The notes under the pieces: model-generated
What the model was told of the DNA's origin: nothing
Seen by the model: only the letters and a program-made list of their open reading frames with translations
The model's database searches: none
Source: Octopus vulgaris
Lineage: Eukaryota
Length of the DNA: 64,000 nt
Assembly (NCBI GenBank): GCA_951406725.2
Contig: OX597836.1
Span: forward strand, 5,394,001 to 5,458,000
Direction of reading: 5' to 3'
Part shown: positions 33,824 to 53,566 of the stretch, in pieces
How positions within the stretch are numbered: position 1 is the stretch's first letter
How the letters are laid out: every line of letters starts with the position of its first letter
Made by a program: the position numbers and the translations under genes

Positions 33824-34012
33824 CTGTTGTGTCTGGAGAGAGTCATTTTCGTTGCGTCTGGCAACCTTTTCAATAGTGTTGACTATAGAAGGGGTTGCAA
33901 AACGCAACGAAAATTTTCGGAAAATAAAAATAAGAAATATTTTGAAATTTTACCAGTGACTGTGTCAAATTATAAGGTAGAGAAAGAAAATGACTCTCTC
34001 CAGACACAACAG
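33824..34012. mobile_element. Repeat family G: two copies in inverted arrangement giving a perfect 27-bp terminal inverted repeat
   Basis: CTGTTGTGTCTGGAGAGAGTCATTTTC (33824-33850) is the reverse complement of 33986-34012; a single-orientation copy lies at 45034-45162. Confidence 0.75.
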
Positions 34013-34093
34013 AATATGCTTCAACACACGGACTCATATAAAGAATCTTGCAAACCAAATGCCAAAACGAAATATATATATATATATATATAT

Positions 34094-35663
34094 ATTCGAA
34101 CTGATCCACTTTGGAAGGGAGGACGCTCTGAAACTCCCATACTCTCTTCCTTCTGGAGAAATTCTCATGGCATCCAACAACATCAGAGACCTGGGAGTAA
34201 CAGTGGACAACAACATAAGCTGGGCTACACATATAAGCAGCAAAGTTGACATGGCCCGCAGAATGTGTTCCTGGATTCTCAGAACCTTCCAGTCGAGAGA
34301 TTCCCACGCTATTATCCTTCTCTTCTCCACTTTTGCCCGACCCCACCTTGAATACTGCTGTCCACTGTGGTCTCCCTACACAAAACAAAATTTGGGAGAG
34401 GGTTCCAACACTGATGTCATCTACCTTGATTTCAGCAAGGCCTTTGACAGGGTTGATCATAAGATCCTTCTGAGAAAGCTGTCCAATATTGGTGTCACTG
34501 GAAAGCTGCTGCAATGGATCAAGTGCTTCCTCTCTAACAGAACCCAACATGTTGTAGTCGAAGGAGTCAAATCCAGCCCAGCCAAAGTCAGCAGTGGTGT
34601 CCCACAAGGCACTGTGTTGGGCCCACTTCTCTTCATCATCTACATAAATGATATTACTGACACCATCAAACACAGCAACATCAGAACCTTCGCTGATGAT
34701 TCCAAGCTCCAGAAGGTCATCAATGGCGTGGATGACCGAATAAACCTTCAGTCAGACCTACTAGCTGTTGTCCAATGGGCGGAAAAGAATAACATGTTGC
34801 TAAATGAAGACAAATTCGAACTGATCCACTTTGGAAGGGAGGACGCTCTGAAACTCCCATACTCTCTTCCTTCTGGAGAAATTCTCATGGCATCCAACAA
34901 CATCAGAGACCTGGGAGTAACAGTGGACAACAACATAAGCTGGGCTACACATATAAGCAGCAAAGTTGACATGGCCCGCAGAATGTGTTCCTGGATTCTC
35001 AGAACCTTCCAGTCGAGAGATTCCCACGCTATTATCCTTCTCTTCTCCACTTTTGCCCGACCCCACCTTGAATACTGCTGTCCACTGTGGTCTCCCTACA
35101 CAAAACAAAATATTATGAGAATTGAAGCTCCCCAAAGGTCAATCACAAAAAAGATAGATGGCATGTCAGACCTTGACTACTGGGGTAGACTAGAGAAGCT
35201 GAAATTGTATTCACTCCAACGACGCCGTGAACGCTACATTATCTGTATGATGTGGAAAATATTCCATCAGCACTGTCCGAATGATGTTGGCATCACCTTC
35301 AAAATGCATCCAAGGCTTGGACCACGTGCCATCCGTCCACAACAAAAATCTAAATCGCATCACATAACGACAATACGGCACAACTATTTCACCTCAATTG
35401 GACCCGCTCTCTTCAACATTACACCAGGACACGTCAAAAAAGAAACTGACCACACAAAATTCAAGAAGTCTTTGGACAAGTTCCTTCAAACAGTACCGGA
35501 CAAACCATCCACACCCGGATATGTCTCCGCAAACAATAACTCTCTGCTCGAATGGGCCTTGGTGCCCAAATCCTGAACTGAAAGACTTCGCCAGGTGGTG
35601 CTATTAAGTTAGACATGGCCTGGGCCAATACTGGCCAAAAACCTTTCTAAGTTATTCTAAGTT

Positions 35664-43963: not shown

Positions 43964-44249
43964 AATACATATATATGTATTTATAACACCGAGATTAATG
44001 TCGGATGCATATACTCAATGTATTTACAGCATACAAGTTATTCTTATATTAAGGGACCAAAACCCTTTTCACGTTTTTTTCACTCGTTGGCCTGCAATGC
44101 GTGTACATTTTTGGTGTTTTTCAGTAGTATCTAAATGCCTCGGTATTTACAAATATGTTGGATATAGGTTGTTGTTTTCGCCCTTGCTCCCTTAATATAA
44201 ATAGATACATATACATATATCGTGAGGTATATTTGCCACCTAAATATAG

Positions 44250-44531
44250 CCGTCCCATAAGGGACGATGCTACTGAAGTATATAGCTAAAGGAAGACAAC
44301 ATTTCCAGAGTATGGAGGACTGTATTTTGTCGTCATATGGTCTCATATTATGACGACAAAGAACAGTCCTCCCTACTCTTCCAACATGCCAAAGACCACC
44401 ATGGAGGTAACTTGAGTCAGCTTGACATCCGCATCTTATCCAAGCATCCAAGAGACCGAACACTCAAAAAAATACGAGAGTACGTCCTTATAAATGAAAC
44501 CTCCCCAATACTAAATAGGAAATATACATAG
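44250..44531 (+). pseudogene. Penelope-like element GIY-YIG endonuclease C-terminal relic
   Basis: SSLLFQHAKDHHGG...IRILSKHPRDRTLKKIREYVLINETSPILNRK fits the PLE pattern S.L..H...H...IL......R.I.E...I....P.LN. Confidence 0.6.
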
Positions 44532-47619: not shown

Positions 47620-48258
47620 ATATATATTGTGTGAGTTTGTGGAATTTTGCAATGTTATTTTATTTCTTTAATTTTACCCATTAACGCCTCCATCGTTTTC
47701 ACCCGTTCCACATCTGCTAATTTCGTAGCTTTCATCACCAGAGATGACCTTAAAAAAAAAATCCGGATTTGAACAAGTGTGGCACAAATTTTTCTTCAAC
47801 TGTTTTCATTCTCAGTTCCTCTCTCAAAATTCGGTGCTAAGAGCTTCATGGGGCAACAATCGCATCAACAGTTTCGTCAATTGTTCGGTGGCGGTTTTCA
47901 TTAGTTCAGGTGATGGACGATCTACCCGAACGAGATTGCTCTTCAAGTGACAAGTTACCGTTCCTAAATTGGAAAACTGCTCGTAAACTTGAGTTTGACT
48001 CATGGTAACGTCCTTGTAAGATGTTTGAAGCAGGAGAACTGTTTCGGCTGCCGTCTTCCGCAGCAGAAGACAGAATTTCATAGCAGAACGATGTACCATA
48101 GCTTCAGCCATCGCAAAATTCTGCGAACAGGATAGAATCAGCGCAAAACAAAGACACACCACGTGACAGTAGCACCTCACACGACGGTAAACTGATGCCT
48201 GAACTACAATGGGCTTGTCCCAAAGAGCGCATCAGGTTGTTTTTGGTACCGCATTGTA
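47620..48258 (-). mobile_element. Internally deleted mariner transposon relic
   Basis: N-terminal HTH (RSAMKFCLLLRKTAAETVLLLQTSYKD...QTQVYE), then after a frameshift LEEQSRSGR, KFVPHL (WVPHEL-like), KVISGDES (first catalytic D), then C-terminal ADVERVKTMEAL. TIR-like end near 48240-48258. Confidence 0.85.
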
Positions 48259-49235: not shown

Positions 49236-49334
49236 CTCAATATACATGTAGAGATGCAATACTTTGGCGCATCTTCGGCATTGAATCCTGGTGCCTCTGG
49301 CTGTTTCAGCTCATCGGTATATACCCTCATCCAG
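49236..49334 (+). CDS. Candidate 99-bp internal exon of an unidentified host gene
   Basis: Acceptor TTCCTTTTAATTCCAG and consensus donor CAG|GTGAGT; length divisible by 3; open in two frames; no recognised homology. Confidence 0.4.
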
Positions 49335-49539
49335 GTGAGTCATTCTACTTTGAACAAGTACAGTACTGTATCGAAGTATTATTTCACTGATATCCACTGA
49401 TGCTTATTTTTAAATCTGAATTTCCAGCATTAGCAAATATCATTTTATGAGCATTTTGAATAATGAAATTCAAAACTTAATAATAAATCTCTGAACGAGG
49501 TATAAACAGTAGCTGCACGACAATGTGAAGTATATTTGC

Positions 49540-49820
49540 CACTTTTTCGAGATCAGTGACATTTCGTTACTGGAAAAAGGATATATGTATTTGCATTGGG
49601 ACCCCTTTGCATCGAAGACCGGTGATTGCCGTGCGCTGATGACGAGTAAATACTCAGAAACCCGGGTCCGTGCGTATCACGCCAGGTCGACGATCGGAAG
49701 GATGGCTTCCCTTTGCAAATACTGATAGGGCAGAGAAAGTGTGTCAATAGCCAAATGGAGATGTTCTCCTGGGACTATAAGCTATAGTAGCATTCACCCT
49801 TGGTGGTTAGCCACATTTAT
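49540..49820 (+). mobile_element. Diverged second copy of the hammerhead-bearing repeat
   Basis: Shares ordered blocks with 52700-52990: CAGTGAC..GTTACTG, CGAAGASCGGTG, hammerhead, TCCCTTTGC, GATGTTCWCCTGGG, TAGCCACATT. Confidence 0.7.
49630..49674 (+). ncRNA. Type I minimal hammerhead ribozyme motif
   Basis: Stem I CGTGCG/CGTGCG (two G-U pairs), intact core CTGATGA (49636-49642), stem II GAGT-AAAT-ACTC closed by a C/A mismatch, GAAA, palindrome ACCCGGGT, GUC cleavage triplet ending at 49668. Confidence 0.8.
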
Positions 49821-49984
49821 GTGGCAAATATACTTCACAAATTCAATAATGTTATCAAGACAATTCTTAAATCGCCAACAAAGCAGTCAATGGTGAAGGT
49901 TATATATCCTTATACAAAAGCTAGCAGTAAAGTAAATTGCCTTCCCGGGTCGTATAATTACCATCTCGAGTCATACAGACTTGT

Positions 49985-50198
49985 AAGTAACGGTTTCTTG
50001 ATTTCCATGGCGTTTATTCTCCTCCACTGGGCACGACGTCGGTCTGTCGCAGGGTTCCTCATTTTTGCCAGCTGATTGGAGTGGGGTAACATGAAAGAAA
50101 TTGCTATACTCAAAACCACAACGTGTCAGCCGCTCCAGGAATCGAAACCGCGATCTAAAAGTCATGAATCCAGCACCATAACCACTAAGCCACGCGCC
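49985..50198 (-). mobile_element. SINE family D, diverged
   Basis: CTCATTTTTGCCAGC, GGAATCGAAACC and TAACCACTAAGC shared with 53066-53330. Confidence 0.8.
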
Positions 50199-50724
50199 TA
50201 CAAACGTTAGGTGTGCATTTATATATTATCGCATTTGCAATAAACAATATTTGAAGTGAAACAAATTCAATAGTTTATTCGTGGTATTTCATCAAACTCG
50301 GGTTACATCTGATAAAGAACAGATTCGAAATAGTCAAAGCCGCCAGCATTTTATAACTTAAATATCTGTTAAGCTCTCCTTTGTCGTTAAATTATGTAAA
50401 TATTGGAAATTTGGGGTATTGCAAACGATATGTAAATAGCGACATCTACCATCTTGTTCAAGTCATGAAAGTGAATTCACAACCAGTCCCTAAAAGTATG
50501 AATACGTTTTCATTGCTAACGCAAGACATAGATACATAAATATTTATATATATATCGGATCGGAGCGATATCGAGATTAAACAGCCGAAATTGCTAAGAT
50601 GATCCGGTTCCCGACTGAAGATTAGAGGCTTCGAGTGACCCGTCTTTTTTTTTGTGTCGTCTCTTTGTGTGTTTTTTGCGTTCTTGTACCACTTTGTAAT
50701 TTATAATTTATACTTAATTTCTAA

Positions 50725-50869: not shown

Positions 50870-51300
50870 CCTCTGGTCCGTCCACTCACGGTCTCGTCTT
50901 GAGCCCGTCTCATTTCGTTATGCTTTGGTCCCGTTCTCGGTAAGTTTATTGCCGGTGCCGAGTGGAATCAATATTATCGATAATGGCCGAAATTGTGTTT
51001 GACTTTTTCTGGCCGATAACTGATGAGGGGTTGGTGAAATCTTCACCTCAACAACGAACAATGACGACTGTTAAGGCGTCAGCGCTACCCAACACGTTTA
51101 CTTCACAACCTCGATTGTGGCCGACCTCAATTGTGTTCGATGTGGTAAGCATTGCTCGGAGCCGGCTCACTCCATACCACCGCAAATCCAAGAAAGTATG
51201 TACGCATAGTAAGAGGTATACTAATGGACATAATACCTTGCCCTGTTTAACACTACCATACATTACCTCCGGTGCCTTTAACAGTGTCCTCTAAGTTGCA
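50870..51300 (-). pseudogene. Possible decayed L1/Tx1-like RT fragment
   Basis: GC-elevated island; SVKQGKVLCPLVYLL resembles SVRQGCPLSPLLY and GSADALTVVI resembles AYADDVTVI. Confidence 0.35.
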
Positions 51301-52671: not shown

Positions 52672-53055
52672 TCTCGCCCAGAGATTTATTATTGTTTTCG
52701 AACAGATTTTCTACGCCAGTGACTGTAGTTACTGTGAAAATCTATATATATCCAGCCGGTAGAGGAAGTCCCTCAACGAAGAGCGGTGCTTACCATACGT
52801 TGACAAGAGGCAATAACCTCGAAACCGGTCCGTGTGTAGTATCCATATCTTCGGGGAGGCTGATCTCCCTTTGCTGGCTGGCAAGGACACCGAGATGGTG
52901 TCAGCTCTTCTGGTGACGTCGATGTTCACCTGGGGCTAAATGCATCAGTAACACCCCCACCACCCCGCCCTGACCCTAGCCACATTCAGATGGCTGACCC
53001 CTCTTATGTTATAGAGCAGTTACTGTTTATATCTCGCCCAGAGATTTATTATTGT
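52672..53055 (+). mobile_element. Hammerhead-bearing 360-bp repeat unit with a 24-bp terminal direct repeat (retrozyme-like or PLE pseudo-LTR)
   Basis: TCTCGCCCAGAGATTTATTATTGT at 52672-52695 and 53032-53055; internal hammerhead; collinear homology to 49540-49820; TA runs on both sides. Confidence 0.7.
52794..52836 (+). ncRNA. Type I minimal hammerhead motif, core decayed
   Basis: Stem I CATACG/CGTGTG, core TTGACAA (two transitions from CTGACGA), stem II GAGG-CAATAA-CCTC, GAAA, palindrome ACCGGT, GUC ending at 52830. Confidence 0.7.
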
Positions 53056-53065
53056 ATATATATAT

Positions 53066-53330
53066 AATAATAATAATAATAATGAATGCGCCCTTTTAAA
53101 GCCTAGCCAGGCTCATCCGCCAGGTTTCCCGGTTTCTATGGCGTATGTGTTCCTCAGCTGGACGGGACGCCTGTCTGTCGCAGCGTTACTCATTTTTGCC
53201 AGCCGAGTGGACTGGAGCAACGTGGAATGAAGTGTTTTGCTCAAGAACACAACGCGTCGCCCGGTCCCGGAATCGAAACCACAATCTTACGATCATGAAG
53301 CCGACACCCTAACCACTAAGCTAGGCACGT
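53066..53330 (-). mobile_element. SINE family D (head and core shared with family C, different tail ending in (ATT)n)
   Basis: TAGCTTAGTGG A-box, GGTTTCGATTCC B-box, TTCTTGAGCAAAACAC, GCTCCAGTCCACTC; second copy at about 49985-50198 (-). Confidence 0.85.
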
Positions 53331-53566
53331 CCACACACACATACACACACACACGCGCGGACATTTATTTATCTAGCTGTGTTTATCTATGTATTTCTCC
53401 CTATTTATATATATAGATATATATGTGTGGGTGTGTGGGTATAGGCACACACAAATACATACAAACACACACATACACATATTTATATATATATTTATGC
53501 ATTCCGTGAGTGTGTGTATATGTGTGAGTGTATGTATGCATGTATGCATGTGTGTATATACATATG

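Follow-up and report, generated by a model that had tools for sequence, protein, structure and literature searches.

A hammerhead-bearing tandem repeat superfamily in the Octopus vulgaris genome, likely a Penelope-moved non-LTR retrozyme

We analysed a hammerhead motif and the repeat that carries it in a 64,000-nt stretch of the Octopus vulgaris genome (contig OX597836.1, positions 5,394,001 to 5,458,000; hereafter the window). The window copy is, with high probability, a solo copy of a non-coding tandem repeat superfamily with units of ~355 nt, presumably a non-LTR retrozyme moved by Penelope proteins, whose transcripts are predicted to cut as dimers. The repeat unit, its copy number, the architecture of its insertions, the covariation of stems I and II and the switching of the stem III palindrome are directly established. 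The superfamily is likely a new addition to the known non-LTR retrozymes.

The window element and its sister

Read 5' to 3', the motif (Table 1) consists of the first arm of stem I (CGTGCG, 49630-35), the core CTGATGA (RNA CUGAUGA, 49636-42), C49643, the hairpin GAGT-AAAT-ACTC, A49656, GAAA (49657-60), CCCGG, the cleavage triplet GTC (GUC in RNA, 49666-68, with C17 at 49668) and the second arm of stem I (CGTGCG, 49669-74), which closes 6 bp including two G.U pairs. Using a type I descriptor (C3-G8 or U3-A8 core, stem II of at least 3 bp, stem I of at least 5 bp), exactly two matches were found in the 64 kb, this one and a sister at 52794-52836, compared to a mean of 0.01 per shuffle in 100 dinucleotide shuffles. 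The hammerhead motif predicted here from CTGATGA, GAAA and GUC is thus real. The bare CTGATGA..GAAA pattern was marginal (4 matches versus a shuffled mean of 1.0, with 3 of 100 shuffles reaching 4), and an Rfam search of the window at gathering score gave no match. Folding of the 56-nt motif alone was no better than that of shuffles (z 0.9), as expected because stem III cannot close inside a single motif; in a 200-nt context, the predicted pairing probability of stem I was only ~0.2. The window copy has the C3UGANG8A core, GAAA and an NUH triplet that define type I hammerheads; the closing pair G10.1-C11.1 is absent in its clade and present in the sister family. Elsewhere in the window (51020-51075, plus strand), CTGATGA, a hairpin and GAAC follow each other within another repeat-like stretch; this stretch has the look of a degenerate hammerhead and fails the descriptor.

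As originally proposed, window copy and sister are collinear yet diverged, with 59% identity between the majorities of their subfamilies. The differences described for stem I (CATACG/CGTGTG in the sister) and for the stem III palindrome (ACCCGGGT versus ACCGGT) were likewise confirmed. The sister's core, UUGACAA, was found in 30/30 aligned loci (some of which overlap the same array) and is the fixed U3-A8 variant of its subfamily. This core variant is known from Penelope hammerheads (Cervera & de la Pena 2014, PMC4209133), and U3-A8 is described as a natural compensatory pair (Perreault 2011). With a fixed U3-A8 core and G10.1-C11.1 retained in the sister, the idea that the window copy is the more intact of the two found no support. 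A 23-nt direct repeat at the sister was rejected as a target duplication: it is the end of the upstream unit.

The element itself had been placed at 49540..49820. It is real but longer, spanning 49479-49839, since the inverted last 64 nt of the unit, with the 3' tail, precede the forward copy and meet it via a 3-nt overlap (CAC, 49540-42). The tail in the inverted arm shares 89% identity over 38 nt with that of the sister (53016-53053), and the forward copy ends 45 nt before the unit's end. This architecture creates a perfect 19-nt inverted repeat (49524-49542/49821-49839), which could be taken for the terminal inverted repeats of a MITE-like DNA transposon. Among 30 A loci chosen by their tail, 16 have an inverted partial copy and 14 have none, and the inversion points vary between loci; we rejected the MITE reading on these grounds, its probability being practically negligible, and regard the inverted repeat as a by-product of the inverted partial copy. 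At 15 of the 16 loci with an inverted copy, the opposite arm ends at the inner 3' point (read by hand). These loci were picked by their tail, so its presence on one end reflects that choice, whereas the end point of the opposite arm does not.

Compared with the majority of 39 other copies, the forward copy differs at 18 of 300 positions. T49640 occurs in 5/39 and A49645 in 3/39 of them; both are alleles of this copy and not subfamily states. With one hammerhead and without a tandem partner, the window copy is a solo, partly decayed copy that would need a partner RNA in trans and is likely inert. No clear target-site duplication was seen by eye. Two further DNA runs, X12 and X13, also contain both insertion junctions; one of these runs may derive from the source sample. 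The short contigs from two presumed RNA runs came from other copies of the family and carried other alleles at 49629, 49645, 49682 and 49695; such contigs are no measure of expression. As for neighbouring repeats, a SINE-like high-copy repeat follows each of the two retrozyme copies at a short distance downstream (49992-50205 and 53123-53336, both on the plus strand, 75% alike). The window also holds a 531-aa open frame (33981-35576, plus strand) with an internally duplicated segment, which we take to resemble a LINE reverse transcriptase, and a short frame (47824-48231, minus strand) that presumably resembles the N-terminus of a mariner-type transposase.

Table 1. Features in the window (positions counted from its first nucleotide)
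Feature	Position	Strand	Description
Old fragment of same superfamily	44222..44285	-	3' part, 73% over 64 nt
Candidate 99-nt exon, not part of element	49236..49334	+	polypyrimidine-CAG ... CAG/GTGAGT, two open frames, single copy
Inverted 5'-truncated second copy	49479..49542	-	last ~64 nt of monomer including ~45-nt tail; without hammerhead
Forward copy, subfamily A1	49540..49839	+	~300 of ~355 nt; ends at inner 3' stop point
Stem I extension past internal loop	49621..49682	+	GGTGAT/ATCAC in window copy; covaries across subfamilies
Type I hammerhead motif	49630..49674	+	descriptor match; cut predicted after C49668
Stem II region	49643..49656	+	C10.1 (49643) facing A11.1 (49656), then GAGT/ACTC, 4-nt loop
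Stem III palindrome ACCCGGGT	49660..49667	+	8-bp intermolecular helix predicted in dimer
Sister element, subfamily B	52672..53054	+	23-nt end of upstream unit and one full 360-nt unit, flanked by (TA)n tracts
Sister hammerhead motif	52794..52836	+	U3-A8 core UUGACAA, G10.1-C11.1, 6-nt palindrome ACCGGT; cut predicted after C52830

Covariation, core variants and the stem III palindrome

For covariation analysis, 17 real copies were chosen by hand as subfamily representatives (alignment A2) from 112 distinct motif contexts and from the loci of the 8-nt-palindrome pattern. Across 22 pairs, 91.6% of the cells were paired (81.3% when shuffled), 45 cells carried double changes (17 when shuffled), spread over 10 of the 22 pairs, and the covariation score was 0.443 (0.252 when shuffled, 0.015-0.136 in slid controls), with a shuffle that ignores relatedness in all three comparisons. 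The measure of 'further pair types' was no higher than in shuffles (194/500). Stem I was paired in 97% of the cells. In stem II, pairs 10.2-10.4 were of standard type in 50 of 51 cells and two of these pairs showed double changes; in the stem I extension (helix 1), 4/6 pairs had a double change. RNAalifold, untold of the structure, recovered stems I and II and the extension, which the predicted monomer fold places in a long rod; every row of the subfamily alignment has an internal loop after stem I. Conservation of the core and of stem I's 3' arm is no evidence, since the search patterns fixed both; the 5' arm of stem I, stem II, the extension and the inner palindrome were left free to vary. 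Covariation in both stems and in the extension supports the original claim of a structure under selection. At non-CpG sites of 39 inserted copies, the ribozyme (core 2.1%, stems 6.8%) does not decay more slowly than the remainder (3.3%), which is what passive copies should show. Selection therefore worked on a few master lineages that keep amplifying, and inserted copies decay neutrally.

The C/A mismatch at the base of stem II had been regarded as a defect in need of repair. C49643 is found in 37/41 copies of the A clade and A49656 in 41/41 (one of 42 rows, with its ribozyme replaced, was dropped), and the C.A pair is kept in related subfamilies whose N7, loop II, stem I and palindrome are different. 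C.A at 10.1/11.1 is thus the clade's ancestral normal state and not damage. The stem II sequences given for the two copies (GAGT/ACTC and GAGG/CCTC) were correct, but their comparison was one base out of register: the segment from core to GAAA is 14 nt in both, C49643.A49656 faces the sister's G-C pair, and the true compensatory change is G-C versus A-U at 10.2/11.2. C49643 could be read as an extra base, but the sister alignment places it at 10.1; helix II has 3-4 bp. Pair 10.1/11.1 is standard in only 8/17 representatives, and young subfamilies show G-C, G.U, U.U and C.A. Natural exceptions to G10.1-C11.1 exist, the best-tolerated mismatch being U.U and not C.A (Perreault 2011). N7 and loop II vary freely across subfamilies.

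Pair 3-8 is standard (C-G, U-A or U.G) in 16/17 representatives. By hand count, the first 100 B-type matches listed comprise 49 C3-G8, 40 U3-A8, 10 C3.A8 and 1 U3.G8, and the first 100 8-nt-palindrome matches listed comprise 57 C-G, 23 U.G, 20 U-A and 0 C.A. The C3.A8 copies belong to one young subfamily, with a median of 99.7% to their own majority. With C3.A8 and U3.G8 among the matches, subfamilies with a broken 3-8 pair did amplify. The C3.A8 subfamily (L129-L135, e.g. G000:C4:80857199) occurs as a tandem trimer and as dimers. Phylogenetically, C3.A8 groups with C3-G8 as its sister inside a clade that otherwise has U3, and the C.A clade contains a nested subfamily with G10.1-C11.1 (F). These changes look like compensatory walks through tolerated intermediates, in an order that depends on the root.

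Such drift bears on a rival reading of the same mobile element, in which the hammerhead fold is kept as a structural signal (for RT binding, priming, RNA dimerisation or stability) with little or no cleavage, above all in the C.A clade. Lineages that went on amplifying pass through mismatches at both core-adjacent pairs, 3-8 and 10.1-11.1, an active Penelope family has a U4C core (see below), and the in vitro activity of PLE hammerheads is reported to be low (Cervera & de la Pena 2014, PMC4209133). However, the 3-8 pair remains standard in nearly all representatives, lineages regain G10.1-C11.1 (F, from within the C.A clade) and change between U3-A8 and C3-G8 cores, consistent with selection on catalysis, and mussel retrozymes of the same size are reported to cleave (Cervera & de la Pena 2020, PMC7229834). 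We consider this reading possible but unlikely, and prefer the one in which dimers would cleave.

The most useful feature of the superfamily is its well-documented palindrome switch. We found six 8-nt palindromes (ACCCGGGT, ACTCGAGT, ACCTAGGT, ACTGCAGT, ACTATAGT and ACCATGGT) besides the 6-nt ACCGGT. The palindrome was perfect in 80 of the first 100 matches listed (hand count) and in 25/30 fetched loci (script), where 1 in 16 would be expected with five free positions and a fixed first base, the copies not being independent. Palindrome pairs carry a double change in 8/17 and 7/13 rows. A tree that uses nothing but the sequence 3' of the ribozyme (40 rows, midpoint root) puts the palindrome types into separate supported clades, implying about five or more switches. 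As a monomer, stem III is predicted to gain only 1-2 extra pairs, and the innermost palindrome pair, lacking a loop, can form only between two motifs. Switching with self-complementarity kept thus supports, on sequence grounds, pairing in dimers, in line with the original assignment of the palindromic stem III to the dimer type. Predicted duplex energies are -14.9 for A:A, -8.3 for B:B and -3.1 kcal/mol for in-register A:B. The palindrome might even act as a self-recognition code, by which subfamilies would dimerise and cleave mainly with their own kind; we rate this extension as distinctly unlikely. If it were true, repeated two-base switches would let competing subfamilies separate within one genome, and there would be a natural series for how dimer pairing compensates the core defects C10.1.A11.1 and C3.A8.

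Copies, insertion marks and Penelope elements

The genome (2.8 Gb in 227 contigs) was searched with both copies. The window stretch gave 3,115 first-look candidates, of which 40 were scored (88-92% identity apart from self); the sister gave 1,520, of which 40 were also scored; these loci contain full-length units with 93-99% identity, many of them in 360-nt head-to-tail arrays. A tight 8-nt-palindrome hammerhead pattern (5-nt loop 3) had 2,818 matches genome-wide, the B-type pattern 254 and the shared 3' tail pattern 1,015, versus 0 control matches for each (reversed patterns). The unit measures 353-364 nt from cut to cut or from tail to tail, has a GC content of 0.42-0.50, is non-coding and forms head-to-tail multimers, a single locus carrying as many as 7 hammerheads. 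Folded as circles, 10 units (one being the 300-nt window body) had predicted z values of -1.2 to -9.5, with 9/10 below -2.5. One family copy (L069:1296-1350) has its hammerhead interior swapped for unrelated sequence, with both stem I flanks kept. Other short hammerhead-bearing elements with an ACCGGT palindrome (L121-L127), some in long hairpins, are all but L126 unrelated to the superfamily, and no Penelope ORF was recognised at eight other hammerhead-like loci.

The superfamily carries Penelope-type marks: insertions are truncated at the 5' end, include partial tandems and inverted copies, and bear a tail of ~45 nt on one end only. The same hallmarks, with a one-sided tail of 30-40 bp, are described for Penelope-like insertions (Craig 2021, PMC8557442). 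Microsatellites adjoin many element ends; a (TA)4 run follows 7 of 23 printed tail ends, and 2/23 continue into another unit. We propose a cycle that would begin with transcription of a tandem array. Two neighbouring hammerheads would swap strands at the palindrome and cut after GUC, releasing an RNA of one unit, which may then close into a circle. A Penelope RT/GIY-YIG protein would recognise the conserved 3' tail and copy the unit RNA more than once round into a new site, which could leave partial tandems, a 5' inversion and a one-sided tail.

The genome does encode intact RT and GIY-YIG ORFs. One Penelope family (L169-L173, L177) has 781-aa RT + GIY-YIG ORFs, an upstream ORF and, in its terminal repeats, a U3-A8 hammerhead with the palindrome ACATGT. 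A second autonomous family (L176:4800-4850, L179-L208, e.g. G000:C14:47.997 Mb) is near-identical and very young (40 scored copies ~100% identical over 701 nt), and its hammerhead has a U4C core in all 33 copies seen (CCGAAGA), U.U at the base of stem II and the palindrome AGTACT; an older relative, L152, has CTGAAGA. A perfect core is thus not needed for mobility.

Among 60 Penelope loci (some overlapping), obtained from 150 scored of 6,136 GIY-YIG candidates, no autonomous element shared the tail. L176, with a Penelope ORF and a family copy 1.3 kb downstream, was rejected as the partner: it has its own hammerhead and 3' end, and the tail occurs in none of 29 other copies. L044 and L239 were rejected as separate neighbouring insertions. 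Since no partner with a shared tail was found, Penelope mobilisation is read from the shape of the insertions.

Another possibility is that the unit is a terminal repeat (pLTR) belonging to an autonomous Penelope element, with the copies being its 5'-truncated insertions. This would account for the Penelope-type architecture, and retrozymes are described as derived from pLTRs (Li 2026, 10.64898/2026.07.22.740005). But the units form full head-to-tail multimers, Penelope protein matches occur at 4 places among 189 family loci (the 2 substantial ones being separate downstream insertions across (TA)n with their own 3' ends, the other 2 short), and no Penelope-like ORF lies upstream in 20 tail-selected loci. 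We thus judge the pLTR interpretation very improbable and favour a non-autonomous retrozyme.

Host transcripts, known systems and meaning

It had further been suggested that the window copy could cut a host pre-mRNA in the intron that follows a candidate exon (49236-49334). The exon lies 295 nt upstream on the same strand, has good splice signals (the best of 8 window candidates by eye) and is single copy in its own genome; the hammerhead core is intact, and the insertion junctions recur in the two other DNA runs. Yet a single hammerhead needs a trans partner, the hetero-dimer with the sister is predicted to be weak (-3.1 versus -14.9 kcal/mol), copies decay neutrally and the exon has no homologue in the collections searched. 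Pfam gave 0 matches in both frames, PDB sequences 0 for one frame, the Atlas no usable match and the protein collection none at E<=0.01, all of which are weak blanks for 33 aa; contigs of the two runs guessed to be RNA leave the exon uncovered. With a single hammerhead and an unsupported exon, cutting of a host pre-mRNA is highly improbable.

A paper by Lunse from 2017 is said to treat minimal hammerheads of Penelope-like elements. Like these hammerheads (PMC4209133), the octopus motifs have a type I fold, a palindrome of 15.2-16.2 and loop 3, predicted dimer cleavage and a U3-A8 variant. Unlike them, the octopus helices have canonical size (I 6 bp, II 4 bp) instead of a long helix II and a short helix I, G10.1-C11.1, described as highly conserved there, is lost in several octopus lineages (PMC4209133), and the octopus unit was not found in repeats flanking an RT-EN ORF. 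With MRC1-type non-autonomous Penelope-like elements (Craig 2021, PMC8557442) the superfamily shares multi-copy head-to-tail insertions, 5' truncation, an inverted copy, a tail at one end and frequent microsatellite neighbours. MRC1-type elements are described as sharing their 3' end with an autonomous family and as mostly without hammerheads, while no such partner was found in the sampled octopus Penelope loci.

The closest match is to non-LTR retrozymes (PMC7229834; Li 2026). The following of their traits were found here: a non-coding 150-450-bp tandem unit (353-364 nt in octopus, 350-390 nt in mussel) with one type I hammerhead and no protein, GC under ~50% (42-50%), a circle predicted to be strongly self-paired, thousands of copies with many solo monomers, and Penelope elements in the same genome. 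Unlike known non-LTR retrozymes, the octopus superfamily includes a clade with C.A at 10.1/11.1, combines at least seven palindrome types with four 3-8 states in one genome, and has insertions with Penelope-type inversions and a one-sided tail instead of clear target duplications. For dimers of frog retrozymes, cleavage is reported in only 1/9 (Li, Clavereau & Pollet 2026, bioRxiv 10.64898/2026.07.22.740005). Cephalopods are unnamed in the main texts of Cervera & de la Pena 2020 (PMC7229834) and Li 2026, and literature searches on hammerheads and retrozymes in octopus and cephalopods returned no paper that describes the superfamily, although paper supplements and repeat databases may hold one.

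The single window copy matters little; the superfamily is the useful part. Cleavage of short-stem-III hammerheads as dimers has so far rested mainly on a few in vitro constructs, and repeated double substitutions that keep a helix unable to close in one motif supply evidence from evolution that this helix pairs two molecules. Movement of retrozymes by Penelope enzymes was suggested in 2020 (Cervera & de la Pena, PMC7229834) and argued from co-occurrence and frog sequence trees (Li 2026, 10.64898/2026.07.22.740005); to this, the octopus inversions and one-sided tails add evidence from insertion sites, in an invertebrate. Finally, the young subfamilies (U3-A8, C3.A8, C3-G8 and U3.G8; G-C, G.U, U.U and C.A at 10.1/11.1) are a ready series for asking whether cleavage is needed for mobility.
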